Positions 253-17,180 of a stretch of DNA of 64,000 nucleotides are shown in pieces. The DNA is from Gemmatimonadota bacterium. GTDB taxonomy: Bacteria > Gemmatimonadota > Gemmatimonadetes > JACCXV01 > JAHWKZ01. The notes below the pieces were generated by a model, which saw nothing but the letters and a program-made list of their open reading frames with translations, was not told where the DNA came from and searched no databases. The position numbers and the translations under genes were made by a program. Each line of letters opens with the position of its first letter. Within the stretch, counting starts at the first letter, position 1. The stretch lies in assembly GCA_033722155.1 (NCBI GenBank), contig JAWVZN010000005.1, positions 8,770-72,769 on the forward strand, given 5' to 3'.

Positions 253-568
253 GTAGAGCCTCCTTCGTCGAGGTTCGTCGGTCCGGGCCCCCACTCCCCC
301 GGCGGGGCCCCGACATCAAAAAAGCGGACGTCCCGCACAGGATGGGCAGGAGCCCGCTTCGAAACGACGCCGCGCCGGCCGACCCCCCAGGGGGGCCGTC
401 CGCGTCGCGTCGGGGTACCCGCGGACTGCCGGCGCTCGAAGGCGCGACGTCCGTCAGGCGAGAAGCCGGGAGCTTCTGCTTGCTCTGTCTTCCCGTACGG
501 GACGGGGACGAAGAAGGTACACGCCCTCCCGCGCACGGTCAACGCGCCTGCGCCGCCCCCCCCCTCCA
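253..568 (-). promoter_or_regulatory. Structured GC-rich leader and promoter region upstream of infC. It contains several perfect hairpins and a hairpin plus T6 run (~313-345 on the minus strand), so it may be an attenuator.
   Basis: Hairpins seen: GAAGC-CGGGA-GCTTC, the 10-nt palindrome CCCGTACGGG, CCCCCC-A-GGGGGG, and AGCGG...CCGCT followed by TTTTTT immediately before the infC SD. Confidence 0.3.
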
Positions 569-2113
569 TCACGCCACCATGATCCCCGCGACCACGATGT
601 ACAGGGCCGCCCCGATCCCCGCCGCCCACAGCGCCAGGGGGAGCTGGGTGAAAACGTGGTCCATGAGGTCGGTTCCGGTGGCCAGCGAGGAGAGGATCGT
701 GGTGTCGCTGATCGGCGAGCACTGATCGCCGAACACCGCCCCCCCGGTGACCGCCCCGAAGCAGAGCGCCAGGTACGCGGGATCGGGGTGGACCGCCCAG
801 GCGAGCGGCATCGCGACGGGGAAGACGATCGCGTAGGTGCCCCACGAAGTTCCGGCGCTGAAGGCCACCACCATGCACAGCACGAGGAAGGCGGCCGGCA
901 GCACGATCGCCGGCACGGCCTCGCCGAACGTCTCGACGATGTAGGACGCCATCCCGACCGCGTCGGACACTTCCTTCAGGGTGACCGCCAGCGCCAGCAC
1001 GATCGCCCCGATCGTGACGCCCTTGCAGCCGGAGACGAACCCGTCCATCACGTCCCGCAGGCCCATCCCCTTCGCGAGCGCCACCCCCATCCCCACCAGG
1101 ACCGCCACCACGAACGCCTCGGCGATCGGCAACACGGGATCTTCCCGCCGCCCCAGCAGGAAGAACGTCACCAGGAACGGCACGATCGCCACCGTCAGCA
1201 GGGTCGCGATCGGTGCGAAGAAGTCGATCAGGCCGGGCCGGTACCCCTCGGGCACGTCCTCGCGGGAGAGCTCCTCGGCCGCCATCGGCTCGGCTCCCTC
1301 CCGATCGAGCTTCCCCGTCTCGCGGGCGCGGCGGCGCGCGTCGAGCATCCGCTCGCCGGCGAAGAAGGAGAGGCGCTCCCAGGAGAAGAGGAGCGTGAAG
1401 GTGATCGCGAAGATCGCGTAGAAGTTGAACGGGATCGCCCGGAAGAAGAATGTGACCCCCTCCTGCTGGCTCCCGATCAGCGGGACGGTGCCCGCCACCA
1501 GGCCACCCACGAAGATGGGCCACACGTTGAAGGGCAGCAGGGTCGCCGCCGGCGACGCGGTCGAGTCCACCACGTAGGAGAGCTCCTCGTGGGCGACCCG
1601 GTTGCGGTCGGCCACCGGACGGACCGTGGCCCCCGTCAGCACCGTGGAGATCGTCCCGCCCTGGTGGAAGACGAGGCCCATGATCCAGGCGAAGAACTTC
1701 GCCGTCTTCGGCCCCCGGACGATCCGCTCCCCCGCCCACTCGGCGAAGCGCACCGCGCCGCCGGTCCGGGTCCACAGCCCGATCAGCCCCCCCAGCGCCC
1801 ACAGGTAGACGAGGAGGATCAGCCCGTAGTCGGGCGAGCCGATCGAGGGGATCAGGAACTCCTGGACGACGTTCAGCCGTCCGCTGATCACGCCCCCCAG
1901 AACGATCCCGATGAACAGCGCGGAGACGACCTCCCGGAGCGCGAACGCCAGCACGATCGCGGAGAAGGCGGGGACCACGGACCACACCCCGTAGTGACCG
2001 TCCTGACGGGGAAAATCGCCGGCGACCGCCCCTCCGAGGGCGATCAGGGCGAGCGCGACGACGAGGCCGACCCACCGGACACGGCGCGTCGGCGCGTCGG
2101 CGTCCTCGCTCAA
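569..2113 (-). CDS. nhaC: Na+/H+ antiporter, NhaC family. It starts on a TTG that overlaps the gloA stop (TTGA).
   Basis: 514-aa polytopic membrane protein with NhaC-like topology and conserved loops. Confidence 0.7.
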   Translation of the reverse strand: MSEDADAPTRRVRWVGLVVALALIALGGAVAGDFPRQDGHYGVWSVVPAFSAIVLAFALREVVSALFIGIVLGGVISGRLNVVQEFLIPSIGSPDYGLILLVYLWALGGLIGLWTRTGGAVRFAEWAGERIVRGPKTAKFFAWIMGLVFHQGGTISTVLTGATVRPVADRNRVAHEELSYVVDSTASPAATLLPFNVWPIFVGGLVAGTVPLIGSQQEGVTFFFRAIPFNFYAIFAITFTLLFSWERLSFFAGERMLDARRRARETGKLDREGAEPMAAEELSREDVPEGYRPGLIDFFAPIATLLTVAIVPFLVTFFLLGRREDPVLPIAEAFVVAVLVGMGVALAKGMGLRDVMDGFVSGCKGVTIGAIVLALAVTLKEVSDAVGMASYIVETFGEAVPAIVLPAAFLVLCMVVAFSAGTSWGTYAIVFPVAMPLAWAVHPDPAYLALCFGAVTGGAVFGDQCSPISDTTILSSLATGTDLMDHVFTQLPLALWAAGIGAALYIVVAGIMVA

Positions 2114-2496
2114 GAGCCCGTCTCGATCAGCTCGATCTCGATGCCGTCGGGATCCTCGATGAAGGCGATGGTCGAGCCCCCTTCGCCGACCCGGTAGGGG
2201 CCGCGGGTGAACTCCACCCCGTGCCGGGCCAGCTGCGAGCGCGCCTCCTCGAGATCGGGCACGCCGAAGGCGAGATGGCCGAACTGGTCGCCCAGCTCGT
2301 AGTCGCGGCCATCGTGGTTGTAGGTGAGCTCGATCGGGTGGTGGCCGTCCTCGTCGGCCAGGAAGACGAGGGTGGCATCGGCGCCCTCGAGGACCTTCCG
2401 TCGCCGTTCGGTGAGTCCGAGCACCTCGGTGTAGAACGCCACCGAGCGATCCAGGTCCTTCACGCGAATCATGGTGTGGAGGAGATCGGCCTTCAT
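2110..2496 (-). CDS. gloA: Lactoylglutathione lyase (glyoxalase I), VOC family.
   Basis: 128 aa; MKADLLHTMIRVKDLDRSVAFYTEVLGL..IELIE is the glyoxalase I fold signature. Confidence 0.75.
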   Translation of the reverse strand: MKADLLHTMIRVKDLDRSVAFYTEVLGLTERRRKVLEGADATLVFLADEDGHHPIELTYNHDGRDYELGDQFGHLAFGVPDLEEARSQLARHGVEFTRGPYRVGEGGSTIAFIEDPDGIEIELIETGS

Positions 2497-2536
2497 GTGA
2501 TTTCTCCCGTAACGTGAGTCAAGTACAAAGGATTCA

Positions 2537-3436
2537 TCAGGTTGTATCTTCCGGAGCGATCGGCGCTGTCTTCCCCGGCCGAAGGTGGCGCGCGCGCCAG
2601 CGCCGGACCGCCCTCGGGATGTCCGCGTCCTCGACGACCACCGTCCGGTTCAGCTCCCGCATCTGCTCGGCCGTCACCACCCCCTCCAGCCGTTGGAGCA
2701 CGTCCCACACCCGGGGGTGGCGCTCGATCGTCTCCCGGCGAACGACCGGAACCGCCTCGTAGGGCGGGAAGAAGTTGCGGTTGTCGTTCAGCACGCGGAG
2801 GTCGAAGGCGGCGATCTGTCCGTCGGTGGAGTTGCCCACCGCGACGTCGATCTCCCCCTGGTCGAGCGCGCGGTAGAGCAGCCCCAGGTCCATCTGCTTC
2901 ACCTCGCCGAACGCGATCCCGTACGCCTCCTTGAGCCCGGGATAGCCGTCCTCGCGGCTCATGAACTCGGGGCCGAAGCCGGCCGTCCACTCCTCGTCCA
3001 CCGCGGCCAGGTCCCCGATCGCCTCCAGGCCGAGCGAATCGGCGTCCCCGGCCCGGACGATCACGGCGAAGGTGTTCTCGAAGCCGAGCGGCGGGGCGAG
3101 CACGAGGTCCCACCGGTCGAGATACGCCTCCTCCACCACGGTGTATACGGAGTCCGCGTCGTGGATCGGATCGCGGCCGAGGACCGCGACCAGGGCGGTG
3201 CCGGTGTACTCCACGTACAGGTCGAGCTCGTCGTTCACCAGCGCCTCGTGGGTGAGCTTGCTGCCGCCGAAGTGGAACCGCCGCTCCACGGGCACCCCCC
3301 TCTCCTCGAGCTCCTGGGAGATCAGCTCGGCGAGCACGTCCTGCTCCACGAAGTCCTTCGAGCCGACCGCCACCGCGTCGGCCCCCCCGCAGGCGGCGAG
3401 CAGGGGGAGCGCGGCCGCGAGGAGCCATCCTCTCAC
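2537..3436 (-). CDS. Glycine betaine/choline ABC transporter substrate-binding lipoprotein (OpuAC/OsmF-like). GTG start.
   Basis: Signal peptide with LLAAC lipobox; substrate-binding fold 2 of the OpuBC/ProX family. Confidence 0.7.
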   Translation of the reverse strand: MRGWLLAAALPLLAACGGADAVAVGSKDFVEQDVLAELISQELEERGVPVERRFHFGGSKLTHEALVNDELDLYVEYTGTALVAVLGRDPIHDADSVYTVVEEAYLDRWDLVLAPPLGFENTFAVIVRAGDADSLGLEAIGDLAAVDEEWTAGFGPEFMSREDGYPGLKEAYGIAFGEVKQMDLGLLYRALDQGEIDVAVGNSTDGQIAAFDLRVLNDNRNFFPPYEAVPVVRRETIERHPRVWDVLQRLEGVVTAEQMRELNRTVVVEDADIPRAVRRWRARHLRPGKTAPIAPEDTT

Positions 3437-4119
3437 GCCGGCTTCACCTCTCCCCGCTCGGCGCCCGGAGCGCCCGGCGCGGTGAGACGCCGGCCCATCC
3501 AGCCGAGCAGGCCGTCGGCGGCGAGCGCCAGCAGCGCGGCGGGCAGCGCCCCGGCGAGGATGAGGGTGTCGTTCACCACGGCGATCCCCCGGAAGATGTA
3601 GACGCCCAGGCCGCCGGCGCCAATCGCGGCGGCGATCGTGGCGATTCCCACGGAGACCACCGCCGCCACCCGGATTCCGGCCAGGATCACGCTGGCCGCC
3701 AGGGGCAGCTGGACCTTCAGCAACAGCTGGAGATCGGTCATCCCCATTCCCCGCCCCGCCTCGACGAGCGCGGGATCGATCCCCCGGATGCCGGCGTGGG
3801 TGTTCCGTACGATCGGCAGCAGCGAGTACACCACCAGGGCGACGATGGCGGTCCTCGCCCCGACCCCCCCGATCAGGGGGATCGGGATCAGGAAGCCGAA
3901 GAGCGCCAGGCTGGGGATCGTCTGGAAGACGTTGGCGGTCCCGATGATCGGCCGCTCGAGGGCCCGGCTGCGGGTCGCCGCGATCCCGAGCGGCACGCCG
4001 ATCGCCGCCGCCACCCCCACCGACACGCCGGAGAGGTACAGGTGCTCGCCGAGGAGACCGCCCACCTCGACGCGGTTCTCCACGAGGAAGCGCGCGAGCT
4101 CCCTCATCGCCTCACCCAC
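3433..4119 (-). CDS. Osmoprotectant ABC transporter permease.
   Basis: 228 aa, 5-6 TM segments, EAA-like loop (EAGRGMGMT); 8-nt overlap with the ATPase gene. Confidence 0.8.
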   Translation of the reverse strand: MGEAMRELARFLVENRVEVGGLLGEHLYLSGVSVGVAAAIGVPLGIAATRSRALERPIIGTANVFQTIPSLALFGFLIPIPLIGGVGARTAIVALVVYSLLPIVRNTHAGIRGIDPALVEAGRGMGMTDLQLLLKVQLPLAASVILAGIRVAAVVSVGIATIAAAIGAGGLGVYIFRGIAVVNDTLILAGALPAALLALAADGLLGWMGRRLTAPGAPGAERGEVKPA

Positions 4120-4891
4120 CGCCGAGCTCCCCCGGGGGCTGCAAGGTCGCCGCCAGCGCGCGGGCCTCGGGATGATCCGATTCGAGCAGCACGTCCGCCT
4201 CGGCGATGACCGCGAGCTCCCCGTCGACGAGCACTCCCACGCGGTCCCCGAGAGCGAGCGCCTCCCGCAGGTCGTGGGTGACGAACAGAGCCGCCTTGCC
4301 GAGCTCCTCCATCAGCTCGCCGAACTCCCTCTGCAGCCGATCCCGGGTGAGCGCGTCGAGGGCGCCGAAGGGCTCGTCGAGCAGCAGCAGCGACGGGTCG
4401 GCGCCGAGCGCTCTCGCCACGCCCACCCGCTGGCGCTGTCCCCCGGAGAGCTGGTGGGGGAGGCGGGCACCGAACCGGCCGGCGGGCATCCCCACCCGGT
4501 CGAGCAGGTCGTCCACCCGTTCCGCGATCCGCTCCTCATCCCAGCCGAGGAGCTCGGGGACGAGTCCCACGTTTCGGCGCACCGTCATGTGGGGGAACAG
4601 CCCGACCTCCTGAATCACCCACCCGATCCCGCGCCGCAGCTCGACCGGGTCCCACGCCGTCGTCTCCACCCCGTCGACCCGCACCGCGCCGGCGGTCGGC
4701 GCGAGCAGCCCGTTCACGAGCTTCAGGGCGGTCGTCTTCCCCGCCCCCGAGCGTCCCACCAGCACCACGGTCTCGCCGGACGCGACGTCGAAGTCGAGCT
4801 CGCGAACGATCGTCGGGCCCCGATGGACCGCAAAGCTCGCCCGGTCGAACTCGACCGCGGCGGTGTCGGCGTCGGAGCCTGGGGGCATCAT
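4112..4891 (-). CDS. Osmoprotectant ABC transporter ATP-binding protein.
   Basis: Walker A GRSGAGKTT, LSGGQRQRV signature and Walker B LLLLDEP. Only the C-terminal 260 aa of the 1019-aa track ORF is real. Confidence 0.8.
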   Translation of the reverse strand: MMPPGSDADTAAVEFDRASFAVHRGPTIVRELDFDVASGETVVLVGRSGAGKTTALKLVNGLLAPTAGAVRVDGVETTAWDPVELRRGIGWVIQEVGLFPHMTVRRNVGLVPELLGWDEERIAERVDDLLDRVGMPAGRFGARLPHQLSGGQRQRVGVARALGADPSLLLLDEPFGALDALTRDRLQREFGELMEELGKAALFVTHDLREALALGDRVGVLVDGELAVIAEADVLLESDHPEARALAATLQPPGELGGG

Positions 4892-4945
4892 CTCCTCGAC
4901 GGAGAACGTGGTAGCGCGGGGACACGCGGCTAATATAGGATCGCG

Positions 4946-7309
4946 ATGTTCCCGCCCACCGCCACCTCGTCGAGCGAACCGCCTCCACCGGCCGGGGCGG
5001 TCGGCTTCGAGCCCCGGAAGGGCGATCGGTGGACGGTATGGGTGGACCGCACCTCCTCGGACGTCCACGCCTTCGCCCACTCCGTCGCCCGCGGTCTTTC
5101 GGACTCCCCCCGCTGGCTCCACTGCCGCTACCTCTACGACGAGGAGGGGAGCCGGATCTTCCTGAAGATCACCGAGCAGCCGGAGTACTACCTGACGGGG
5201 GCAGAGGTGGAGATCCTCCGCGAGCGCGCCAGCGAGATCCGCGAGGTGGCGGGCGAGGTCCCGCTGGTCGAGCTGGGATCCGGCTCGGCCGCGAAGACCC
5301 ACCACCTCCTGGACGCCTGGACCCGGGCCTCCGGGGAGGTCGAGTACGTGCCGATCGACATCGACCCCTCGGTGTTGACGGAGGCGGCTCGACGGGTGGT
5401 CGAGGCGTACCCGAACCTCCGTGTCGAGGGCCTGGCCACCTCCTACGAGCGGGGGCTGGACCTGCTGCGGGATCGCTCCCCCCTGTGCCTCGTCTTCCTC
5501 GGGTCCACGATCGGCAACTTCAACCCGGACGAGACCGACGCCTTCCTCGCCCGGCTCGAACGGGATCTCGCCCCGAGCGACTCCCTGCTGCTGGGCGTGG
5601 ACCTGGTGAAGGACGCCACGACGCTCGAGGCCGCCTACGACGACGACGCCGGGTGGAGCGAGGCGTTCACCCGGAACCTCTTCGTCCGGATGAACCGGGA
5701 GCTCGGAACCGCGGTCGACCCGGAGACGATCGACCACGTGGCCTACTGGAACGACCGGCTCGAGCGGATCGAGATCTACGCCCGCTTCCTGGAGGCGACC
5801 GAGATCTCCCTCGTCTCGATCGGACGACGCTTTCGGGTCGCGGCGGGCGAGATGGTACTCACCGAGATCAGCCGCAAGTACCGGATCGAGCGGATCGAGG
5901 CCGATCTGGCGCGCTTCGGTTTCCGGCTGGAGCGCTCTTTCACCGACGCCGGCGAGCGGTTCGGGTTGCTGCTGTTCCGGCGGATCGAGGAGACCGGTGC
6001 GCCCCCCGACTGGATGCGGCTCGCGGCGCGCCTCCAGCACGCCCGGCGCCGAACCCTCGAGCTGATCGAGCCGCTGGAGGAGGAACGGCTCGAACGGCAG
6101 GTCCTTCCCTTCCTCTCCCCCGTCCTGTGGGATCTCGGGCACGTGGCGGAGTTCGAGGAGCTGTGGCTGATCCACGCGACCGACGCGCTCGAGGAGGAAG
6201 AGGGCGGCCACGAAGCGTCCCTGGAGCGGATCTACGACGCCACCCGTACCGCCCGCCGGAGTCGGGGCGAGATCGAGCTGCCCGAGCGGGACGCGCTCCT
6301 GGCGCGGCTGCGTCGGATCCGCCGCGAGGCCCTCGCCCGGCTCCGCACCGTGCGGCTCGACCCCGACGAGCCCCTCCTCGCCGACGGCTTCGTCTACCGG
6401 ATGGTCGCCCAGCACGAGCGGCAGCACCAGGAGACGATCCTCCAGGCGATCGCGCGGATGGACGACCTCGCCTACGAGCCCGCCCACCGCCACGACACCC
6501 CCCGCCCGTCCCTTCCCCCGGACGCGGAGGCCGTGCTCGTCCCCGGGGGCGCCTTCGTGATGGGGGCCGTCGACGACCCGGCCGCCTACGACAACGAGCG
6601 GCCGGCCCACTGGGTGGACCTGGAGGCGTACTGGATCGACACGTCGCCGGTCACCAACGGCGACTTCCTGGAGTTCGTCCGCGCGGGCGGCTACGAGCGG
6701 CGCGATTGGTGGAGCGAGGATGGGTGGGCGTGGCTCCGGGAGGCGGGGGTGGAGCACCCGCTGGGATGGCGTCGCGGCGCGAACGGCTGGGTGGAGACGG
6801 GCTTCGGGCGGGACGAGCCGCTGGTTCCGACCCGGCCGGTGGTCCACGTCTGCTTCTGGGAGGCGGAGGCCTTCGCCCGGTCGGTCGGAAAGCGCCTCCC
6901 CACCGAGGCGGAGTGGGAGAAGGCGGCGGCCTGGAACCCCGAGACCCGGGTCTCCCGCCGCTGGCCCTGGGGCGACGCTCCACCCGATCCGGGTCGCGCC
7001 AACCTCGACGCCCGAACCTTCGCCCCCGCCCCCCTCGGCGCGTATCCCGAAGGCCGCTCCTTCTACGGCTGCCACCAGCTGATCGGCGACGTGTGGGAGT
7101 GGACCGCCACGGAGTTCGGCCCCTATCCCGGGTTCGAGCCCTTCCCCTATCCCGAGTACTCCGAGGTCCATTTCGGCGAGGGGTACCGGGTGCTGCGCGG
7201 GGGCTCGTGGGCCACCGGCGTCGACGTCGCCCGCAACACCTTCCGCAACTGGGACTGGCCCTACCGCCGTCAGATCTTCGCCGGCTTCCGGTGCGCGAAC
7301 GACGCGTGA
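4946..7309 (+). CDS. egtDB: Fused ergothioneine biosynthesis protein. The N-terminal part is EgtD (histidine N-alpha-methyltransferase). The C-terminal part is EgtB (DinB_2 plus FGE-sulfatase sulfoxide synthase).
   Basis: Residues ~40-330 align with EgtD (ELGSGSAAKT, FLGSTIGNF, LLLGVDLVKD). Residues ~350-500 form a DinB_2 domain (LWDLGHVAEFEELW, QHERQHQE). Residues ~520-787 form an FGE-sulfatase domain (HVCFWEAEAFARS, RVLRGGSW). Confidence 0.8.
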   Translation: MFPPTATSSSEPPPPAGAVGFEPRKGDRWTVWVDRTSSDVHAFAHSVARGLSDSPRWLHCRYLYDEEGSRIFLKITEQPEYYLTGAEVEILRERASEIREVAGEVPLVELGSGSAAKTHHLLDAWTRASGEVEYVPIDIDPSVLTEAARRVVEAYPNLRVEGLATSYERGLDLLRDRSPLCLVFLGSTIGNFNPDETDAFLARLERDLAPSDSLLLGVDLVKDATTLEAAYDDDAGWSEAFTRNLFVRMNRELGTAVDPETIDHVAYWNDRLERIEIYARFLEATEISLVSIGRRFRVAAGEMVLTEISRKYRIERIEADLARFGFRLERSFTDAGERFGLLLFRRIEETGAPPDWMRLAARLQHARRRTLELIEPLEEERLERQVLPFLSPVLWDLGHVAEFEELWLIHATDALEEEEGGHEASLERIYDATRTARRSRGEIELPERDALLARLRRIRREALARLRTVRLDPDEPLLADGFVYRMVAQHERQHQETILQAIARMDDLAYEPAHRHDTPRPSLPPDAEAVLVPGGAFVMGAVDDPAAYDNERPAHWVDLEAYWIDTSPVTNGDFLEFVRAGGYERRDWWSEDGWAWLREAGVEHPLGWRRGANGWVETGFGRDEPLVPTRPVVHVCFWEAEAFARSVGKRLPTEAEWEKAAAWNPETRVSRRWPWGDAPPDPGRANLDARTFAPAPLGAYPEGRSFYGCHQLIGDVWEWTATEFGPYPGFEPFPYPEYSEVHFGEGYRVLRGGSWATGVDVARNTFRNWDWPYRRQIFAGFRCANDA

Positions 7310-8385
7310 GCGCGACCCCGGGAGGGCTCGCCGAACGGATCGCGCGCCTGCCCCTCGTCGTGGAGGGCCACCGGGTCGAGACCGGCTCGGTTCCGGCCGT
7401 CGGCTACTACGGCGGGGAGCCGCGTCCGACCGGGGTGATCGTGCTGGAGGGGGAGGACCACGAAGGGGCCGGGGAGAACGTGGGTTGGACCCCCGAGGCG
7501 CAGGACGCCTTCGCCGGCGCCTGCGGCGCGCTCGTCCCGCACGGCGAGACCACCGTCGGGGAGCTCTCGGCGGGGCTGTCGGAGGCGACCGGGGAGCCGT
7601 ACCACCGCGCCGCGGTCGAAGCGGCGGCGATCGACCTCGCCCTGAAGCGGGCGGACACGAACCTGTTTCGGCTCGCCGGGCGGGACCCCCTCCCGGTCCG
7701 CTTCTGCTGGTCGATCCACGAGGGGGAGGATCCGGTCCGGACGGTGGAGGCCCTGCTCGCGTCGTGCCCCACCGCGCGGGCCAAGCTCGACGTCCCCGAG
7801 GAGGGGTGGCCCGACCGGGTTTGGGAGGCGCTGGGCGCGACCGGCCGGATCGTGGTCGCCGACTTCAAGCGGAAGGGCGTCCCCCGACAGGTCCTCGCCG
7901 CGCACCGCCACCTGCCGGAGGCTTGGCTGGAGGACCCGCCGCTCGAGACGGGCCGCGACGGGGCGGCGTCCGCCGCGACCGCGCACCCGGTCGGCGGCGT
8001 CCCCGGATGGCTGGACCGGATCTCGCTGGACGGATGGGTCCGCTCGGCCGAGGATCTCCGTCGGCCTCCCCTCCCCCCTGCGGCGATCAACGTGAAGGCC
8101 CCGCGGGTGGGGGGGTGGCTCGAGGCGCTCCGGATCCTGGAGCGTTGCCGGCGCCGCGGGTGGGCGGCCTACGTGGGGGGGATGTTCGAGGTGGGGATCG
8201 GGCGCTGGCAGGCGCGAACCCTCGCCTCCCTCTTCTCCGCCTCCGCCTGGAACGACCTGGCACCCGTCCGCGAGGAGGAGGCGTCGCCGTTCGCCGCCAC
8301 GCCGCTCCCGATGTCGGTCGTGCGCCCGGGATTCGGGAGAGCGGAGCCCGGCCCCGGCGAAACCGGATCCCCGCCCGGCGCGTAG
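7306..8385 (+). CDS. Enolase-superfamily-like protein (MLE/OSBS-like), function unknown. Its GTG start overlaps the egtDB stop (GTGA).
   Basis: Motifs spaced like MLE-subgroup barrel ligands: IVVADFKRK, AWLEDP, ISLDGWV, NVKAPRVGGW, GGMFEVG. This is a weak, unverified call. Confidence 0.35.
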   Translation: MSATPGGLAERIARLPLVVEGHRVETGSVPAVGYYGGEPRPTGVIVLEGEDHEGAGENVGWTPEAQDAFAGACGALVPHGETTVGELSAGLSEATGEPYHRAAVEAAAIDLALKRADTNLFRLAGRDPLPVRFCWSIHEGEDPVRTVEALLASCPTARAKLDVPEEGWPDRVWEALGATGRIVVADFKRKGVPRQVLAAHRHLPEAWLEDPPLETGRDGAASAATAHPVGGVPGWLDRISLDGWVRSAEDLRRPPLPPAAINVKAPRVGGWLEALRILERCRRRGWAAYVGGMFEVGIGRWQARTLASLFSASAWNDLAPVREEEASPFAATPLPMSVVRPGFGRAEPGPGETGSPPGA

Positions 8386-8430
8386 GGAGGGGGAAGCCGG
8401 CGAACCCGAACTGCCGAACGGAGGTGCCCG

Positions 8431-8874
8431 ATGCGCCGCATCGCGATCGTTCCCCTGATGCTCCTCCTTCTCGCTCCCCTCCCCGCGTGCGACCTCGCGG
8501 TAGACATCCAGCTCGATGACGATCCTCCGCGCCGCGTCGTCCTCACCGACGCGCCCGTATCCTCGGAGTGGTCCTATCGCGCCCATGCCCTCGTCTTCGA
8601 CGCCCCCCTCGATCTCGAGCTCGAGCTGATCCTGTTCGAGGACGACCGCTTCCGCCTGTGGATGGACGCCGCAGCCGACGAGGAGCTGGAGCGGGAGGTG
8701 GTCTCCGGAACGTACCGGTGGGAAGGGGACGCCCTCCTGCTGCGGGACGAGGGAGGGAACGTCCAGCGGCTCCGCCTGCGTGGGGACGAGCTCGTCCCGG
8801 ATGCCGGATGGAAGTGGACCCTGGCGCGGGAGAGCCTGGGGCTGCCCGACTTCGGGTTGGAGCGCGTACGCTAG
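8431..8874 (+). CDS. Hypothetical lipoprotein.
   Basis: Signal peptide MRRIAIVPLMLLLLAPLPAC with a lipobox; no recognisable domain. Confidence 0.45.
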   Translation: MRRIAIVPLMLLLLAPLPACDLAVDIQLDDDPPRRVVLTDAPVSSEWSYRAHALVFDAPLDLELELILFEDDRFRLWMDAAADEELEREVVSGTYRWEGDALLLRDEGGNVQRLRLRGDELVPDAGWKWTLARESLGLPDFGLERVR

Positions 8875-8881
8875 GGCGGCG

Positions 8882-10021
8882 TCAGAGGCGCTCTGACCGC
8901 ACCTCGATCCTGACCCCGCGGCCGCGGATCTCCTCCAGGATGCGATCGGCGAGGTCGGGCTCGGCCCCCAAGGTCTCCGGGGGGTGGACCCCGGGCTTCA
9001 TCCACGCTCCCTCCGTCACCGCGCGCGCCACCGCCACCGCGGGAAAGCCCGTGGCCCTGGCCATCGACGTGTCGTTCGTCTCGGGGTCGGTCCGGTCGAA
9101 AAGCGTCCAGGTGTCGCGGACGCGCTCTCCCTCCCTCTCCCCCTCGACCTCGACCCGCAGGACGGTGAGCTCCTCCTCGCCCGGACGAAGCGCCCACGCC
9201 CGCTTCAGCAGCCGCTCGGACACCGCCCGGGGAGCCACCTCGACGGCGCCGACCTCGATCTGCCCCTCGTTCAGGAACCCGCTGTCGCGCAGCGCCCGCA
9301 TCTTCGCTGCGTGTCCGGGCCATCGCAGCGTCTTTTCGATCATCGTCGCGGCGGGGATCGTGTCGAGGAGGGTCCGGAGCCCGTCGGTGAGAAACGCCTC
9401 GAGCGTACCCACCCCCTCCACCTCCACCGTCTCGATTCCGGAGAGGGCGGGCCGGACGAGGACCTCGCCGTCCAGGCGGATCCGGGCCGGGCGTACGTAC
9501 TCCTCGAGAACGTCCGCCGGATGGAACACCGCGCGGTATCCCCACGGGGGGCGGGGATCGGAGGGGATCCCGCCGACGAGGATCCGTACCGACTCGACCT
9601 CGTCGAGCCCGGACACCGACCGGCCGACCATCAGGTTGGAGAGGCCGGGGGCGACGCCGCAGTCGACGATCACCGGAATCCCCCGTTCCCGCGCGACCGG
9701 ATCGAGCGCTCGAGGATCCTCGGGGGAGAAGGAGACGTCGACGGTCGGGATCCCGTGGTCCACCAGGGCGCGAAGGAGCTCGAACCCGATGGCCCCCGGC
9801 ATCGAGAGAAGCGCCACGTCGGCTCCCTCCACCAGCGGCTGCACGAGCCCGGCATCGGAGAGGTCCGCCGCCCGGGCCTCCACCCGGTCGCCCAGCCCCG
9901 CCAGCGCCCGATCGCTCCGGTCGACCGCCCGGACCGCGAGGGCGGGCTCGTCGGCGAGCGTCCGGGCGATCAGGCCGCCGACCCTCCCCGCGCCCAGCAC
10001 CACCGCCAGGCGCCCGCTCAC
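8882..10021 (-). CDS. Saccharopine dehydrogenase-like NAD(P)-binding oxidoreductase. Its GTG start overlaps the upstream stop (GTGA).
   Basis: N-terminal Rossmann LAVVLGAGRVGG plus a saccharopine dehydrogenase C-terminal region. Confidence 0.65.
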   Translation of the reverse strand: MSGRLAVVLGAGRVGGLIARTLADEPALAVRAVDRSDRALAGLGDRVEARAADLSDAGLVQPLVEGADVALLSMPGAIGFELLRALVDHGIPTVDVSFSPEDPRALDPVARERGIPVIVDCGVAPGLSNLMVGRSVSGLDEVESVRILVGGIPSDPRPPWGYRAVFHPADVLEEYVRPARIRLDGEVLVRPALSGIETVEVEGVGTLEAFLTDGLRTLLDTIPAATMIEKTLRWPGHAAKMRALRDSGFLNEGQIEVGAVEVAPRAVSERLLKRAWALRPGEEELTVLRVEVEGEREGERVRDTWTLFDRTDPETNDTSMARATGFPAVAVARAVTEGAWMKPGVHPPETLGAEPDLADRILEEIRGRGVRIEVRSERL

Positions 10022-10929
10022 CTCCGCTCCAGGCTCTCGCCTTCGAGGAACACCCATCCCACCTTCGGATGCTCGGAGCGGATCGTCCGCTCCAGCTCTC
10101 CGGCCGCGCTCTCGACGGCCTCCGCAGACACGTCCGAGGCGAAGTCGACCGAGAGCACCACCAGCACCTTTTCGGGCCCCATGTGCATCGTCAGCAGCTT
10201 GCCCACCCGCTCGACGGCCTCGTGGGTCGCCACGATCCGCCGCACGCCCTCGAGCAGCGGCGTCCGCGCGGCCTCCCCGACCAGGAGCCCCCGCGTCTCC
10301 CACGCCAGCCACAGCGAGACGGTGGCGAGGATCAGGCCGATGACGATCGAGGCCGAAGCGTCCCAGACGGGATCGCCGGTCGCGCTCGACAGGAAGACCC
10401 CCGCGGCCGCCACCGCGATTCCGGCCAGGGCCGCCGAGTCCTCGAACAGCACCACGAAGAGGGCGGGGTCCTTGCTCTCCTTGAGCGTCTCGACCACGCC
10501 GCGGTCGCCCTTCCGGCGGAGGAACTCCCGGACCGCGATGGTGGTGGCGACCGTTTCGAAGGCCGCCGCGATCCCGAGCACGACGTAGTTGGGAAGCGGG
10601 TCCTTCAGCTCCGCCGGATGGAACAGGTGGGTGACCCCTTCGTAGATCGAAACTCCCGCCCCCACCGCGAAGAGGACGATCGCCACGACGAAGCCCCAGA
10701 AGAACACCTCCTTGCCGTACCCGAAGGGGTGGGTTCGATCCGGCGGCTTGTCGCCGCGCCACATGCCGAGGAGCATGAGCGCCTGGTTTCCGGTGTCGGC
10801 GACCGAGTGGACGCCCTCGGCCAGCATCGCGCTCGATCCGGTCATCGCCGCGGCCACGAACTTCGTCACCGCGATCGCGCCGTTGCCGAACAGGGCCGCG
10901 TACACGACCCCCTTGCTTCCGCTAGCCAC
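10018..10929 (-). CDS. Cation diffusion facilitator (CDF) family metal efflux transporter. GTG start.
   Basis: 303 aa, 6 TM segments and the CDF signature (HSVADTGNQ...GYGK), with a C-terminal cytoplasmic domain. Confidence 0.8.
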   Translation of the reverse strand: MASGSKGVVYAALFGNGAIAVTKFVAAAMTGSSAMLAEGVHSVADTGNQALMLLGMWRGDKPPDRTHPFGYGKEVFFWGFVVAIVLFAVGAGVSIYEGVTHLFHPAELKDPLPNYVVLGIAAAFETVATTIAVREFLRRKGDRGVVETLKESKDPALFVVLFEDSAALAGIAVAAAGVFLSSATGDPVWDASASIVIGLILATVSLWLAWETRGLLVGEAARTPLLEGVRRIVATHEAVERVGKLLTMHMGPEKVLVVLSVDFASDVSAEAVESAAGELERTIRSEHPKVGWVFLEGESLERR

Positions 10930-12856
10930 CGGGGGGAGGCGGGCTGGACTCCTCCCGCAACCGGGTCACGAAATGATCGATGTCCATCTCGCCGAGCTCC
11001 CCTTCGGCCCAGGAGCGGACCGAGACCTTGCCGGTCCCCGCCTCCCTCTCCCCCACCACGACCATGTAGGGGACCTTTTGCACCTCGGCGCCGCGGATCT
11101 TGTAGCCGACTCCCTCGCGCCGGTCGTCGATGCGGGAGCGCAGTCCGGCCCCTCGCAGATGCTCGGCGACCGTCTCCGCGTACTCGAAGAAGCGGTCGGC
11201 CACGGGGACGATCCGGATCTGCTCGGGCGACAGCCACAGCGGGAACGCGCCCCCGTAATGCTCGATCAGGATCCCCATGAACCGCTCGATCGAGCCGAAG
11301 GTGGCCCGATGGATCACCACCGGCCGGTCCTCGGCGCCCGACTCCGCGGTGTAGGTGAGGCCGAAGCGCTCGGCCATGTTGAAGTCGAGCTGGATGGTGG
11401 AGAGCTGCCACTTCCTCCCCAGCGCGTCGGTGACGTGGAAGTCGATCTTGGGGCCGTAGAACGCCCCGTCACCCGGGCTCACGCGATACTCGAGATCGTT
11501 CGAGTCAAGCGCCTGGCGCAATGCGGATTCCGACCGGTCCCAGATTGCGTCCGAACCGATCCGTTTCTCCGGCCGGGTGGAGAGTTCGCGCTCGATCTCG
11601 AAGCCGAAGACGTCGCCGAGCACGTACTGCACCAGGCCGATCAGGGAGCGGACCTCCTCCTGGACCTGCTCCTCGGTGCAGAAGATGTGGGCGTCGTCCT
11701 GGACGAACGTCCGCACCCGGAAGAGCCCGGTCACCACGCCGCTCTTCTCGTAGCGGTGCAGCCGGCCGAAGTCGGCGTAGCGGAGCGGCAGGTCGCGGTA
11801 GGAGCGCTTTTGCGAGGAGTACACGAAGGTCGAGGCCGGGCAGTTCATCGGCTTCACCGCCATCTCCTTCTCGTCCGCCCCGGTGAAGAACATGTTCTCC
11901 TTGTAGTTCTCGTAGTGGCCCGAGCGGTGCCACAGCTCCACGTCGTAGATCTGCGGGGTGATGATCTCCTCGTGGGGCCACGGGCCCTCGTAGAGATCCC
12001 GCATGAAACGCCGGAGCCGGTTGTAGATCCACGCGCCCTTCGGGTGGAAGTAGGGGCTCGCCGGCGCGTTGGGGTGGAAGCTGAAGAGGTCGAGCTCCCG
12101 GCCGAGCTTGCGGTGGTCCCGCTCCTTCGCCTGCTCGAGCCGATCGAGGTGCTCCTCGAGGTCCTTCCGCTCGAAGAAGGCGGTCCCGTAGATCCGGGTG
12201 AGCATCTCGTTCGCCTCGTCGCCCCGCCAGTAGGCGCCGGCGGTCGAGAGGAGCTTGAAGTTGCCGAGCCGCCCGGTGGTCGGGACGTGGGGGCCGCGGC
12301 ACAGGTCGAGCCACTCGCCCTGCCGGTAGATCGTGAGGGTCTCCTCCTCGGGCAGGTCCTCGATGATCTCCACCTTGTAGGGCTCCTCCAGCTCGCGGAA
12401 GAGATCGAGCGCCTCCTCGCGGGAGAGCACTTCCCGCTCGATCTCGAGATCCTCCCCCACGATCCGCCCCATCTCCTCCTCGATCGCCTCGAACTCCTCG
12501 GGCGTGAACGGCTCGTCCCGGTCGAAGTCGTAGTAGAAGCCCCCCTCGATGACGGGCCCGATCGTCACCTTCGTTTCGGGCCACAGCCGCTGGACGGCCT
12601 GGGCCATCAGGTGGGCGGTGGAGTGGCGGTACACCTCGAGGGCGGTCTCGTCGCGATCGGTGAAGATCGTCAGCTCGGCGTCGTCCTGGATCGGTCGGGA
12701 GAGGTCGACGACGCTGCCGTCCACCCGGGCCACGACGGCGGCCCGGGCCAGTCCGGGTCCGATCCGCTCGACGATGTCCCGCGGAGTCGCGCCCCGCTCG
12801 GCCTCCATCTGGGAGCCGTCGGGGAGGGTGACGGTGATCGTGCCGTTTTCGCTCAT
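10922..12856 (-). CDS. thrS: Threonyl-tRNA synthetase.
   Basis: 644 aa with TGS, second additional, class II core and anticodon-binding domains (HRSGHYENYKENMF, FRVRTFVQDDAHIF). Confidence 0.9.
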   Translation of the reverse strand: MSENGTITVTLPDGSQMEAERGATPRDIVERIGPGLARAAVVARVDGSVVDLSRPIQDDAELTIFTDRDETALEVYRHSTAHLMAQAVQRLWPETKVTIGPVIEGGFYYDFDRDEPFTPEEFEAIEEEMGRIVGEDLEIEREVLSREEALDLFRELEEPYKVEIIEDLPEEETLTIYRQGEWLDLCRGPHVPTTGRLGNFKLLSTAGAYWRGDEANEMLTRIYGTAFFERKDLEEHLDRLEQAKERDHRKLGRELDLFSFHPNAPASPYFHPKGAWIYNRLRRFMRDLYEGPWPHEEIITPQIYDVELWHRSGHYENYKENMFFTGADEKEMAVKPMNCPASTFVYSSQKRSYRDLPLRYADFGRLHRYEKSGVVTGLFRVRTFVQDDAHIFCTEEQVQEEVRSLIGLVQYVLGDVFGFEIERELSTRPEKRIGSDAIWDRSESALRQALDSNDLEYRVSPGDGAFYGPKIDFHVTDALGRKWQLSTIQLDFNMAERFGLTYTAESGAEDRPVVIHRATFGSIERFMGILIEHYGGAFPLWLSPEQIRIVPVADRFFEYAETVAEHLRGAGLRSRIDDRREGVGYKIRGAEVQKVPYMVVVGEREAGTGKVSVRSWAEGELGEMDIDHFVTRLREESSPPPPGG

Positions 12857-12897
12857 GACGGTGGGAAGTTAGGGGTCCCCCCGATCCCCGCCAAACG

Positions 12898-13272
12898 TCA
12901 GAGCGCCCCGTAGCGCCGCAGCGTCCTCTCCGTTGCCACGTAGACGAACGACGGCTCCGTTCCGCCCTCCCGGTCCGCCGCCACGACCCGGGCGGTGATC
13001 CGAGTGTAGAGCCCCTCGTGGACCCCTTCGTAGGCGTCGAGGCGCTGGTATTCGGTTGGCTCCAGATCCCGGTAGAGGCGTCCGTCGACCACCTCGCCCA
13101 CCGCCTCGAAGACGGTCGGAACAGGCATCCCCTCGATCTCGAGCAGCTCGAAGTCGAGCAGCCGGGCGGAGACGGCGGTGACGGACCGCTCCAGGAGCCG
13201 GCCGACGAAGGCCTCGTCGACGAGGCTCCCGTAGGCGAACAGGGGAAGCCGGGGTCCTGGCGGGAGGTGCAC
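12898..13272 (-). CDS. Gamma-glutamyl cyclotransferase-like (AIG2/GGCT fold) protein. GTG start chosen.
   Basis: PLFAYGSL motif (YGSL) and a C-terminal GGCT fold. The upstream 108 aa of the track ORF are not conserved and would overlap the purE promoter. Confidence 0.5.
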
Positions 13273-13374
13273 GCGAGAAGGGTAGGAGAGCGGCCCTCTC
13301 CGGTCCAGCCACGGGGAGATCCGCCTGGAACTCCCGATTGCAGGAGGTTCTCCCGTACCCCTAGATTCGGGCCG

Positions 13375-13878
13375 ATGGAAGAGAGTGCCCGCCCGCGTGT
13401 CGGCGTCGTCATGGGATCGACCTCCGACTGGGAGACGATGCGTCATGCCACCGACACGCTCGACGAGCTGGAAGTGCCGTACGAGGTGGAGGTCGTCTCC
13501 GCCCACCGTACCCCAGACCGTCTGATCGAGTACGCCTCGACCGCCGAGGAGCGGGGGCTCAGGGTCATCATCGCCGGCGCCGGGGGCGCTGCCCACCTGC
13601 CGGGGATGACCGCCTCCAAAACGATCCTCCCCGTGCTCGGCGTCCCGGTGGAGTCGCGAGCCCTGAGCGGCCTCGACTCGCTCCTCTCCATCGTCCAGAT
13701 GCCCGCCGGGGTGCCGGTGGGGACGCTCGCCATCGGCCGCTCGGGGGCGAAGAACGCCGCGCTCCTCGCCGCCGCGATCGTGGGGATCGAGGACGCCCCG
13801 GTCCGCGAAGCGGTTCGCGCCTACCGGGAGCGGCAGACCACGTCCGTCCTGGAGCGCACCGACCCCCGCGAAGGGTGA
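13375..13878 (+). CDS. purE: N5-carboxyaminoimidazole ribonucleotide mutase.
   Basis: [14 protein letters not shown]...[14 protein letters not shown]...VLGVPV are the canonical PurE motifs. Confidence 0.85.
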
Positions 13879-15002
13879 TGAACGTCGGGATCGTCGGCGG
13901 CGGCCAGCTGGGGCGGATGCTCGCTCTCGCGGGCTACCCGCTGGGCGCCCGGTTCCGGTTCCTCGACCCGGCCGAGGATGCCTGCGCGGCGCCGCTCGGC
14001 TCTCACCTCGCGGCCGATTACGACGACGAAGGCGCCCTGGCCGGCCTCGCCGAATGGGCCGATGTCGTCACCATCGAGTTCGAGAACGTCTCCGTCGAGG
14101 CGCTCGAGCGGATCACCGGCACGGTGCCGGTCCATCCGGCGCCCGGCTCGCTCGCGGTGGCTCGCGACCGCCTGGAGGAGAAGACCCTGTTCGATCGGCT
14201 CGGGATCCCGACCCCCGCCTGGGCCGCGGTCGACGATCGCGCGGGGCTCGAGCGGGCCGCCCGGACGATCGGCCTCCCGGCGGTCCTGAAGCGGCGAACC
14301 CTGGGGTACGACGGGAAGGGCCAGGAGGTCGTGGGGGACGAGGGCGACCTCGGGGCGGCGTGGGACCGGCTGGGGAACCTCCCCCTCCTCCTCGAGTCGT
14401 TCGTGGCGTTCGACCGCGAGGTGTCCGTGCTCGCAGCCCGGGCTCGCGACGGGTCGACCGCGTTCTACCCGGTGAGCGAGAACACCCACGAGGAGGGAAT
14501 CCTGCGGGTCTCCGTCAGTCGCCCCGGCGACCCCGCCGCGGAGCCCGCCCGGGAGCTCTCCGGGAGGATCCTCGACGCGCTCGACTACGTGGGCGTACTC
14601 GCGCTCGAGCTGTTCGAGAAGGACGGCGAACTGCTCGCCAACGAGATCGCCCCGCGGGTCCACAATTCCGGCCACTGGTCGATCGAAGGGGCGCGCGCGA
14701 GCCAGTTCGAGAACCACCTGCGCGCGGTGCTCGGGCTGCCGCTCGGCGATCCCTCCCCGGTCGGACTCGCAGCGATGGTCAACTTCATCGGGGAGATCCC
14801 CCCCGTCGAGCAGGTCCTCGCGATCCCCCCGGCGCACCTCCACGTCTACGACAAGGCTCCCCGTCCGGGCCGGAAGATCGGGCACGCCACCGTCCGCGCC
14901 GACGACGAGCGGGAGCTGCGGACGGCCCTCGACCCGCTCCTCGAGCTCGTCGGCCTCCCGGCCCGCTCGACCCGGAGTCGTCCGCCGGCATCCGGGCGGT
15001 GA
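13875..15002 (+). CDS. purK: N5-carboxyaminoimidazole ribonucleotide synthase. Its start overlaps the purE stop (GTGATGA).
   Basis: 375 aa with an ATP-grasp fold ([37 protein letters not shown]). Confidence 0.85.
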
Positions 15003-15015
15003 TCCGCCCGGCGTT

Positions 15016-15834
15016 CTACCGGTCGAGGCGGGAGAAGTCCACCGTACCGTACACCTCTCGCTTCCAGCGAAGTCCGAGATCGGTCACCTCGCCCCGCCTC
15101 TCGCGGGGACGCTCCCGCACGTCCCGGAAGCACTCCCACAGCATGCGCCGTTGCTGGAGCACATGGTCGGGCTCGCCCAGGGGGTGGCCGAAGGGCCACC
15201 GGACGAACAGCGCCCGTGGTGGGGCGAGGCGGCGGGTGATTTCCTTTTCGAGGGAGATCGACACCGTGGGGAGCCCGGCTTCCTCGATCTCCCGCTGGAC
15301 CAGACCCACGGTCTGGTTGCACGTACCTCAGGCGGGCGTCAGCAGGACGAGGTCGACCTCCTCCCTCCGCATCGCCTCGACGACCTCGGGAGCGGTCTCC
15401 TCCACCAGAGCGGCCGTCTGGGGGACGTAACCCATCATGGAGTAGTGGGTGGGCGCCAGGCCGCCCAGCGCACCCTCGTCCACCAGCTCGCGGAGCCGGT
15501 CGAGGGGGAGCAGGATGTTCGGGTCCTCCTTCGCGTCGCGGGTGTCGTAGTGGGTGTGGTCGACCACCAGCTCGGCGAGCTCGGCGTCGTGCGGGATCGC
15601 GCGCCAGGAGGGATCGCCGGCGTCGCAGTCGAAGGCCGGCTGCTCGGCGAAGCGGAAGCCGCCGGTCGTGAAAACCGCGATCCGGCTCTCGGCGAATCGC
15701 CCTTCGAAGGGAACCCACGGCGTCTCCCCTTCGACCTCGGCCTCGGCCGCCTTTCGGGCCCACCACCGCTGCAGCTCCGGGAACGGGCCGATCGCCCGTG
15801 CGACCGCCCGGTCGAGGACGCTCCGGATGGTCAA
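15016..15834 (-). CDS. GrdB/PrdB-family (glycine/betaine/proline reductase component B-like) predicted selenoprotein. It has an in-frame TGA at 15328-15330 read as Sec, and a TTG start overlapping the ATL stop (TTGA).
   Basis: Two track ORFs (15328..16365 and 15016..15309) are in one frame, separated only by the TGA. The context is LVLLTPA-U-GTCNQTVGLVQREIEEAGLPTV (a UxxC motif). An 8-bp hairpin (15299-15317) lies 10 nt after the TGA. A GGGAG SD precedes the TTG. Confidence 0.55.
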
Positions 15835-16163
15835 GCCGTTTCTCCCTCGCTGGCCTCGGGCTCGATCCACCCCCACCGGTCCAGATCGATCGTGCCGTCG
15901 GGGTCGAAACGGACGCCCTCGTCCTCGAGGAGCGCCCGTTGGAGCTCGGGGGGAAGGCCGATCTTGGAGATGGAGATGCCGCCGTGGCGGTTGACGACCC
16001 GGTGCCACGGAACGTCGGTGCCGCTTGGCAGGGCGTGGAGCGCCCACCCCACCGCGCGGGCCGCGCGGGGGTTGCCCGCCAGCGCGGCGACGTGGCCATA
16101 GGTGGCCACCCGGCCGGGCGGGATCCGGCGCACCTGCTCGTAGATCGCGTCGTAGAACGACAC
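15831..16163 (-). CDS. Alkyltransferase-like protein (an ATL, i.e. an Ogt/MGMT-fold protein lacking the reactive Cys). GTG start with a GGAGAGGAA SD. An alternative ATG at 16241 is rejected because it lies inside the tRNA terminator.
   Basis: PGRVATYGHVAALAGNPRAARAVGWALHALP..VPWHRVV has Trp where the reactive Cys of PCHRV sits. Confidence 0.6.
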   Translation of the reverse strand: MSFYDAIYEQVRRIPPGRVATYGHVAALAGNPRAARAVGWALHALPSGTDVPWHRVVNRHGGISISKIGLPPELQRALLEDEGVRFDPDGTIDLDRWGWIEPEASEGETA

Positions 16164-16197
16164 CGGACCGTTCCTCTCCGGACGAGATCGACGCGCG

Positions 16198-16232
16198 AAA
16201 AAAGGCCCGGCTCGCAAGGTACGATCCGGGCC
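16198..16232 (-). terminator. Intrinsic terminator downstream of tRNA-Ala.
   Basis: On the minus strand: GGCCCGG, a 15-nt loop, CCGGGCC, then TTTTTT. Confidence 0.55.
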
Positions 16233-16246
16233 CTCCGTCATTCTGC

Positions 16247-16322
16247 TGGTGGAGCTGATGGGATTCGAACCCACGACCTCCGGAGTGCGATTCCGGCGCT
16301 CTCCCAGCTGAGCTACAGCCCC
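16247..16322 (-). tRNA. tRNA-Ala (anticodon CGC); 76 nt with an encoded CCA.
   Basis: The cloverleaf was folded by hand. It has a G3:U70 pair, the anticodon loop AUCGCAC, and T-loop GGTTCGAATCC. Confidence 0.85.
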
Positions 16323-16377
16323 ACGAGAAACACGAAATATAGGCGGTGGCGGCGCTTCTCACCACGAGGGCGGCGGA

Positions 16378-17097: not shown

Positions 17098-17180
17098 CCT
17101 CCGTTCGGTGTGCGGATCCACGGTTCGAACTTCTCGGGAAGCGTGTCGGGATACCCCGCAGAGGATAGTTTGCTCCGCCG

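Follow-up and report, generated by a model that had tools for sequence, protein, structure and literature searches.

A widespread bacterial EgtD-EgtB fusion coupled to the DUF8230 enolase-superfamily gene: a candidate module for ergothioneine biosynthesis

We analyzed a 64,000-nucleotide stretch of contig JAWVZN010000005.1 from a Gemmatimonadota bacterium (referred to below as the window; GC content ~70%, closest database matches in a Gemmatimonadota metagenome-assembled genome, MAG) that carries two overlapping genes related to ergothioneine biosynthesis. The first of them (4946..7309, plus strand) is a 787-aa open reading frame (ORF) with an ATG start that, according to Pfam, NCBIfam and its homologues, joins the histidine methyltransferase EgtD to the sulfoxide synthase EgtB. 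The second (7306..8385, plus strand) has a GTG start and encodes a 359-aa protein assigned to the DUF8230 family by profile search, fold modelling and precomputed Pfam annotation. Genes of an ATP-binding cassette (ABC) importer are located next to the pair in the opposite orientation. The GTG at 7306 overlaps the fusion stop codon TGA at 7307-7309 (gcGTGAgc), so the GTGA overlap described in an earlier reading of this DNA (hereafter, the original prediction) is present, and every other element of that reading was also found where it had been placed. We propose, with a probability of roughly 40%, that the locus is a conserved three-part ergothioneine module composed of the fused EgtDB, a DUF8230 C–S lyase, and a betaine-type importer.

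The EgtD-EgtB fusion is a genuine single gene. A Pfam search with the 787-aa protein revealed Methyltransf_33 (PF10017) at residues 44-345 (E 2.8e-95), which constitutes the EgtD domain (5075..5980, plus strand), followed by DinB_2 at residues 363-498 (E 3.1e-14) and FGE-sulfatase at residues 527-784 (E 2e-60), which together constitute the EgtB module (6032..7297, plus strand). Both NCBIfam equivalog models scored above their cut-offs: egtD (TIGR03438, residues 44-343) gave 299.8 bits vs a cut-off of 290.9, and egtB (TIGR03440) gave 386.4 vs 360. In addition, the EgtD crystal structures 4uy7 and 4pim match the EgtD half at ~1e-63. The single EgtD-then-EgtB polypeptide, along with the three Pfam domains anticipated in it, is thus borne out. 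The GC content at third codon positions (GC3) is 0.93 in the fusion ORF and in the DUF8230 ORF alike; high-GC DNA of this kind also yields spurious ORFs of considerable length, such as 5029-8385 and 4112-7171.

An identical 787-aa protein is already on record, and there are more than 120 full-length homologues (~760–860 aa, 53–76% identity) of the same three-domain build; Gemmatimonadota supply most of them and Binatia some. In each of the 38 independent loci that show both halves, EgtD and EgtB lie within one stop-to-stop ORF (38/38). Because of this, and because of the full-length homologues, a sequencing frameshift or misassembly that would leave egtD and egtB as separate genes is excluded. 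The same homologues show that the fusion is not rare. It is a widespread architecture that has already been annotated automatically (PGAP usually names the homologues ‘ergothioneine biosynthesis protein EgtB’), so by itself it adds at most one more member to a kind already known.

The EgtB half is nearest to the mycobacterial type I EgtB of Mycobacterium thermoresistibile (MthEgtB, structure 4x8b; E 6e-104). The type II CthEgtB of Chloracidobacterium (6o6l), which uses cysteine, matches at 5e-49, and EgtB-IV and OvoA match more weakly than 6o6l. Residue equivalences with MthEgtB were counted on the printed 4x8b alignment, where the chain index equals the native numbering plus one. The iron ligands H51, H134, and H138 of MthEgtB correspond to H399, H490, and H494 of the window protein, the catalytic tyrosine Y377 to Y735, and the hercynine contacts Y380, N414, and W415 to Y738, N768, and W769. 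The residues contacting γ-glutamylcysteine (S43, D48, R87, R90, D416, and R420) are found as S391, D396, R437, R440, D770, and R774; of these, R437, R440, D770, and R774 are taken to bind the thiol. All these positions are invariant in 119 of 119 fusion homologues, except for S43, which is conserved in 117 of 119. The roles of the MthEgtB residues come from published work, according to which D416 forms a hydrogen bond with the glutamyl moiety, and the selenoneine synthase SenA has His and Phe/Tyr in place of R87 and D416 (PMC4768315, PMC11237966, bioRxiv 10.1101/2022.04.13.486033).

The window EgtB has the NWD motif of MthEgtB, while SenA has NFF and OvsA has NFY at this place. Two related identities were considered and rejected: the SenA model (NF041186) scored 350.2 vs a cut-off of 420, with R437, D770, and the NWD motif all retained, and an OvsA identity is at odds with NWD standing instead of NFY. 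Since all γ-glutamylcysteine contact residues are kept, we predict that the sulfur donor of the fused EgtB is γ-glutamylcysteine and not cysteine. The choice between type I and type II, which the original prediction had left to the substrate-binding residues, falls on the type I signature.

The 359-aa product of the downstream gene matches exactly a protein annotated as hypothetical in a Gemmatimonadota MAG. Precomputed Pfam annotation reports DUF8230_N and DUF8230_C (PF26684/PF26685) in the window protein and in all its close homologues; the local Pfam copy, which does not include these two entries, returned just a marginal match to MR_MLE_C (E 0.0025). A profile built for the family matched structures of N-succinylamino acid racemase (NSAR)/o-succinylbenzoate synthase (OSBS) at 1e-20 to 1e-15 (best 1.7e-20), and dipeptide epimerases and muconate cycloisomerases matched more weakly. 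The AlphaFold2 model is confident (pLDDT 89.1, pTM 0.90) and contains a capping domain and a modified TIM barrel, the fold of the enolase superfamily's muconate lactonizing enzyme (MLE) subgroup. In Foldseek the model aligns over its full length (~360 columns) with NSAR/OSBS, dipeptide epimerases, and MLE, at TM-scores of 0.64–0.72. Profile, AlphaFold, and Foldseek evidence thus agrees with the MLE/OSBS-like barrel previously suspected in this ORF, and the possibility that it has no enzyme fold is ruled out.

To describe the active site, we counted residue equivalences along the HMMER alignment to the Amycolatopsis NSAR/OSBS (1SJA). The three metal-binding carboxylates located at the ends of strands 3, 4, and 5 (D189, E214, and D239 in 1SJA) are kept as D186, E209, and D242 of DUF8230, for which we propose the same Mg-ligand role. 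Also kept are K263 and the second-shell R266 (K264 and R267), R299 (R300), and K161 (K160). Four positions are changed: K163 to D162, N191 to K188, Q215 to D210, and E240 to G243. Strand 2 accordingly reads K160-x-D162 instead of KxK, while the strand 6 lysine, K264, is present, and K188 lies two residues past the first metal ligand. Across 42 locus copies representing several phyla, neither the DUF8230 residues listed here nor R40, E57, E105, E295, N316, or D317 vary, and nearly all of 147 family cluster representatives have the same residues.

The racemase reaction relies on two acid/base lysines, K163 and K263, and the reactivity of K263 as a general base is specifically increased by R266, while in the β-elimination catalyzed by OSBS K263 acts via a cation-π interaction and not as an acid or base (bioRxiv 10.1101/2022.03.03.481873). 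The menC/NSAR model TIGR01928 scored only 44.7 vs a cut-off of 200.65 with the window protein, in which the arginine R267 is present and the K163 position is lost. Judging by these comparisons, DUF8230 appears to be a derived sister family of NSAR/OSBS, not a member of it. It looks like an NSAR/OSBS descendant that has kept the Mg site and the activated K263-type base, while the active site has been reshaped on its opposite face.

The linkage between the fusion and DUF8230 was followed in 45 loci, 40 of which were collected with a DUF8230 seed (one genome per species) and five by contig look-ups. They belong to Gemmatimonadota, Binatia, ‘Deltaproteobacteria’, Myxococcota/Polyangiaceae, and Thermodesulfobacteriota, with one distant match from Solirubrobacteraceae. 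Mapping with hidden Markov models (HMMs) placed EgtD-EgtB directly upstream of DUF8230 in ~40 of 41 informative DUF8230-seeded loci; the exceptions, where upstream sequence exists, are locus L031 from Binatia and the distant L042. DUF8230 was found directly downstream in all five fusion-seeded loci, with overlaps of 4–17 nt, and adjacency of the pair spans at least five lineages. At 42 junctions, the DUF8230 start overlaps the fusion stop or lies within ~45 nt of it in the great majority of cases, and an NTGA overlap is present in 16. Clustering of neighbours in the 45 loci revealed no family that recurs across phyla other than the fusion, DUF8230, and the importer described below; this clustering, based on a GC3 filter for ORFs, is noisy (antisense ORFs form false clusters), and HMM-based results were relied on. 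Longer family representatives that resembled Rosetta-stone fusions of DUF8230 to EgtB or EgtD were discarded as gene-call or frameshift artefacts.

Genes of an ABC importer (ATPase, permease, and OpuAC binding protein) lie alongside in ~33 of 45 loci, with three different arrangements. In Gemmatimonadota it is divergent and upstream, in Binatia and delta-proteobacterial MAGs it is downstream on the same strand, and in Myxococcota it is again on the same strand but upstream, and its genes are ordered differently. The fact that these neighbours have been rearranged yet retained argues for a functional linkage. In the window, the divergent betaine-type importer was confirmed and comprises, on the minus strand, a ProV-like ATPase (4112..4888; scores below cut-offs), a BPD_transp_1 permease (3433..4119), and an OpuAC-type (cluster F-III) quaternary-amine substrate-binding protein (2537..3436). 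The start of the ATPase gene is separated from the start of the fusion by 57 bp (4889..4945), a region presumed to contain both promoters; a search for sigma-70 promoters and intrinsic terminators around the gene pair gave no match, a result that is uninformative for this phylum.

The window binding protein matches EgtUC structures at ~1e-42, and ProX and OpuBC-derived proteins at 1e-49 to 1e-52. Assignment of the ligand by similarity was dropped, since EgtUC, ProX, and OpuBC-type proteins score alike. Probable substrates of the importer are ergothioneine, hercynine, or a related betaine. Further along the minus strand, the binding-protein gene is followed by a small gene for a VOC/glyoxalase-I-like protein (128 aa; 2110..2496; TIGR00068 score of 101, below the cut-off of 120) and by an NhaC-like antiporter gene. 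The VOC gene occupies this position in 16 Gemmatimonadota loci, is not found in the Binatia or Myxococcota versions, and may belong to the transporter operon.

In the mycobacterial paradigm, type I EgtB requires EgtC, which removes the glutamyl residue, and EgtE, a pyridoxal phosphate (PLP) lyase. Genes for these steps were not detected at the locus: Pfam lists covering ~445-18385 of the window contain no GCS2 (egtA), GATase (egtC), or Aminotran_5 (egtE), and none of these families occurs among 29 further ORFs beyond position 15000, a set of housekeeping genes called roughly by GC3 and with gaps (e.g. ~19.1–23.9 kb). The absence of egtA, egtC, and egtE from the vicinity, noticed before on simple inspection of ORFs, therefore holds. 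Eight Pfam-annotated loci likewise contain no GATase (EgtC) and no GCS2 (EgtA) gene; the single Aminotran_5 gene among them (in L005) is four genes away on the other strand and unlinked. As for genes of γ-glutamyl metabolism in general, a GGACT (γ-glutamyl cyclotransferase-like, PF06094) gene is located at 12898-13272 (minus strand), ~4.5 kb downstream of DUF8230 and beside thrS, and recurs in just 3 loci, and hydantoinase A/B (oxoprolinase-type) genes are found at 55373-58992 (minus strand). Both are possible γ-glutamyl-cycle enzymes whose presence here is probably just synteny.

Our proposal that DUF8230 is a lyase follows from the fact that its closest relatives bind N-acyl amino acids and deprotonate them at the position α to a Mg-bound carboxylate. 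After deprotonation, NSAR/OSBS enzymes either return the proton (racemase) or expel a β leaving group (OSBS), and the N-succinyl group is a near-isostere of γ-glutamyl. The product expected of a type I EgtB would fit such an active site, since it is an N-acylated amino acid with an excellent β leaving group, the sulfoxide.

In the proposed pathway, EgtDB would methylate histidine to hercynine and, like mycobacterial type I EgtB, would join hercynine to γ-glutamylcysteine using Fe(II) and O2, yielding γ-glutamyl-hercynylcysteine sulfoxide. DUF8230 would then bind this N-acylated (γ-glutamyl) amino-acid sulfoxide via its Mg2+-coordinated carboxylate. K264, activated by R267, would most likely abstract the cysteinyl α-proton, and the sulfenate would leave by β-elimination as ergothioneine sulfenic acid, to be reduced subsequently to ergothioneine. 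The γ-glutamyl-dehydroalanine left over should hydrolyse to glutamine and pyruvate. DUF8230 would in this way act as a PLP-independent, Mg-dependent C–S lyase that does the work of EgtC and EgtE in one step.

A lyase of this kind would account for the lack of a clustered EgtC or EgtE, as a PLP lyase requires a free amine and an enolase-type lyase does not, and also for the translational coupling of DUF8230 to the synthase. An unusual later step had been suspected at this locus from the start, and a conserved, coupled enolase-superfamily enzyme is consistent with it. We put β-elimination on γ-glutamyl-hercynylcysteine sulfoxide, as deduced by analogy, at somewhat less than an even chance. We are a little more doubtful about the wider proposition that DUF8230 founds a class of PLP-independent, Mg2+-dependent C–S lyases in the enolase superfamily, that EgtDB and DUF8230 suffice to produce ergothioneine out of histidine, SAM, and γ-glutamylcysteine, and that the abundant actinobacterial subfamily of soils described below performs the same step for unlinked egt genes. 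Separately, we note that in one locus obtained with a fusion seed (L129) a PNPOx_N (FMN-binding split-barrel) gene (10232-10705) lies between the DUF8230 and ABC ATPase genes and overlaps both; it could encode a reductase for the sulfenic acid or the sulfoxide and is conserved nowhere else.

Several observations weigh against the lyase proposal. First, a much larger DUF8230 subfamily is found in Thermoleophilia/Gaiellales-type Actinomycetota, so abundant that a search with one member filled at least 8000 scored candidates with E below 1e-20. It has the same active-site signature, keeping R40, E57, K160, D162, D186, K188, E209, D210, D242, K264, R267, and more. Its genes stand alone amid housekeeping synteny, near RNase J, and EgtB, EgtD, or OpuAC was nearby in 0 of 83 metagenome and contig loci, a set in which 31 have a length of 8 kb or more. 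Either actinobacteria pair DUF8230 with unlinked egt genes, or the reaction of the family is more general; because a subfamily with the same signature is never egt-linked, the chemistry of the family need not be bound to ergothioneine. Second, in the Binatia locus L031 (3206-7004) DUF8230 is followed by ABC ATPase, permease, and OpuAC genes, with no EgtD-EgtB within 3.2 kb upstream or 7 kb downstream; this locus is the sole such exception among subfamily A loci. Third, the loss of K163 argues against a two-base racemase, but the invariant K188 might substitute for it. Fourth, the absence of egtC and egtE is established for the scanned loci and the scanned ORFs of the window, and organisms with type II EgtB cope with unlinked generic lyases. 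Finally, specificity for γ-glutamylcysteine is predicted from conserved residues, and the DUF8230 reaction is deduced solely from fold, motifs, and gene context. Apart from these points, an exonuclease VII large-subunit-like gene (a reading of the sequence, not a family search) is often seen just upstream of actinobacterial DUF8230.

The housekeeping context of the actinobacterial subfamily, with the same signature and without egt genes, would fit a role in which DUF8230 catalyzes some other enolase-type reaction and supports the pathway indirectly, through supply of precursors, repair or removal of EgtB side-products, or recycling. Ergothioneine would then be completed by an unlinked γ-glutamyl transpeptidase or amidase and a PLP β-lyase, and there are indeed many bacteria with egtB and egtD only that lack a clustered lyase (PMC4621440, PMC11993508). 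However, the pair is adjacent in essentially every locus sampled, in five or more lineages and with stop and start codons that overlap, which is unusually strict for a helper gene, and no other candidate for the EgtC or EgtE step is ever clustered with the fusion. We consider an indirect role rather unlikely.

If K188 does replace K163, DUF8230 could be a racemase or epimerase, as are its NSAR, dipeptide-epimerase, and hydroxyproline-betaine-epimerase relatives. It would invert the α-carbon of an N-acyl amino acid, a γ-glutamyl dipeptide, or a betaine such as hercynine or ergothioneine; the importer could perhaps supply the substrate. The betaine-type importer is frequently linked, L031 has DUF8230 and the importer without the synthase, and the betaine epimerase HpbD is reportedly an MLE-subgroup enzyme encoded beside a betaine transporter. 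The nearest structural and sequence relatives of DUF8230 are racemases and epimerases, K188 is an invariant lysine close to the first metal ligand, and K264 and R267 are kept, the equivalent R266 having been tied to 1,1-proton-transfer activity (bioRxiv 10.1101/2022.03.03.481873). On the other hand, the canonical second base is an invariant Asp in DUF8230, and the translational coupling is with the synthase, not with the transporter. An enolate with a sulfoxide on the β-carbon would be expected, on chemical grounds, to eliminate and not to be reprotonated, and we know of no D-configured intermediate in the ergothioneine pathway. Inversion of this kind seems to us unlikely.

The original prediction raised the possibility of a fungal Egt1-like, cysteine-dependent route of two genes. 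In it, the fused EgtB would use free cysteine, and hercynylcysteine sulfoxide would be the substrate of DUF8230 in the third step. Egt1 has its domains in the same order, egtA and egtC are not nearby, and DUF8230 might in principle β-eliminate a free-amine sulfoxide too. Likeness to Egt1 stands as far as this order goes, but the nearest solved relative of the EgtB half is a bacterial type I enzyme, which is far closer than CthEgtB (6e-104 vs 5e-49). Furthermore, D416, R87, and R420, which hold the γ-glutamyl/thiol substrate, are kept in all 119 homologues, and the amino acids bound by relatives of DUF8230 are N-acylated and not free. Dependence on cysteine is accordingly contrary to the predicted donor and appears quite improbable. 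An assembly or frameshift artefact, with egtD and egtB in reality separate or the downstream ORF no gene at all, has a negligible chance in view of the single-ORF loci and full-length homologues, the equal GC3 of both genes, and a confident DUF8230 model with invariant catalytic residues.

Other features of the window were also noted. Directly downstream of DUF8230 there is an ORF of 147 aa (8431-8874, plus strand; GC3 0.87) without a Pfam or NCBIfam match, whose homologue was found in just one other locus (L012). At 23874-25562 (minus strand), one ORF joins LpxC (residues 107-375) to a FabA/FabZ-like dehydratase domain (431-555) and is followed by lpxD, ompH (skp), and bamA, making up a lipid A/outer-membrane cluster. 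At 50217-52173 (minus strand), a gene for RtcB RNA ligase adjoins an archease gene.

In the open literature (subscription-only papers were outside its scope) we found no mention of DUF8230, no discussion of bacterial EgtD-EgtB fusions, nothing relevant on a PLP-independent lyase for ergothioneine, and nothing that joins ergothioneine with the terms ‘enolase superfamily’, NSAR/OSBS, or dipeptide-epimerase. Nothing in the searchable literature describes a type I EgtB fusion strictly paired with DUF8230, or the alternative completion that this implies. To our knowledge, aerobic routes to ergothioneine are thought to require a PLP C–S lyase, and those with type I EgtB also the amidohydrolase EgtC. 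DUF8230 standing in place of both suggests a fourth ending of the pathway and a new enolase-superfamily reaction. If true, this would provide a function for a Pfam DUF found in great abundance in soil metagenomes and a compact two-gene cassette for metabolic engineering of ergothioneine, a sought-after antioxidant, and would extend its production to Gemmatimonadota, Binatia, and Myxococcota.

Compared with the mycobacterial EgtA-E system, the window fusion has the same EgtB (M. thermoresistibile, 4X8B) and EgtD (M. smegmatis, 4PIM/4UY7) modules, both above the family cut-offs, and the three-His iron site, Tyr377, and the hercynine and γ-glutamylcysteine contacts are all conserved. However, EgtD and EgtB are separate proteins in mycobacteria and one polypeptide here, and the window locus has the DUF8230 gene and a betaine-type ABC importer instead of egtA, egtC, and egtE. 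With fungal Egt1 (type III) and Egt2 the locus shares the N-to-C order of methyltransferase, DinB, and FGE-sulfatase domains and a short pathway with few genes. The difference is that Egt1 uses cysteine and the PLP lyase Egt2 finishes the synthesis, whereas the window combines a type I γ-glutamylcysteine signature with a non-PLP partner.

EgtE, Egt2, and OvoB catalyze the same net reaction that we propose for DUF8230, β-elimination of a histidyl sulfenate from a cysteine sulfoxide adduct. They have the Aminotran_5 fold and depend on PLP, while DUF8230 belongs to the enolase superfamily and would depend on Mg2+. The PLP lyases require a free amine, hence EgtC, while DUF8230 would accept the N-γ-glutamyl form. 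NSAR/OSBS enzymes resemble DUF8230 in the capping domain and TIM barrel, the D/E/D metal ligands, K263, R266, R299, and the GGM.E motif, and they bind N-acyl amino acids or perform β-elimination (OSBS), as proposed for DUF8230. They differ from it at K163 (Asp), N191 (Lys), Q215 (Asp), and E240 (Gly), with an identity of ~20–23%, and in their context, which is menaquinone or D-amino-acid conversion and not ergothioneine. Finally, the window binding protein and that of the EgtUV importer of S. pneumoniae and H. pylori are both members of the OpuAC cluster F-III family. In EgtU the permease is fused to the binding domain, whereas in the window the two are separate genes, and the binding protein resembles ProX and OpuBC-derived proteins at least as closely as it does EgtUC.

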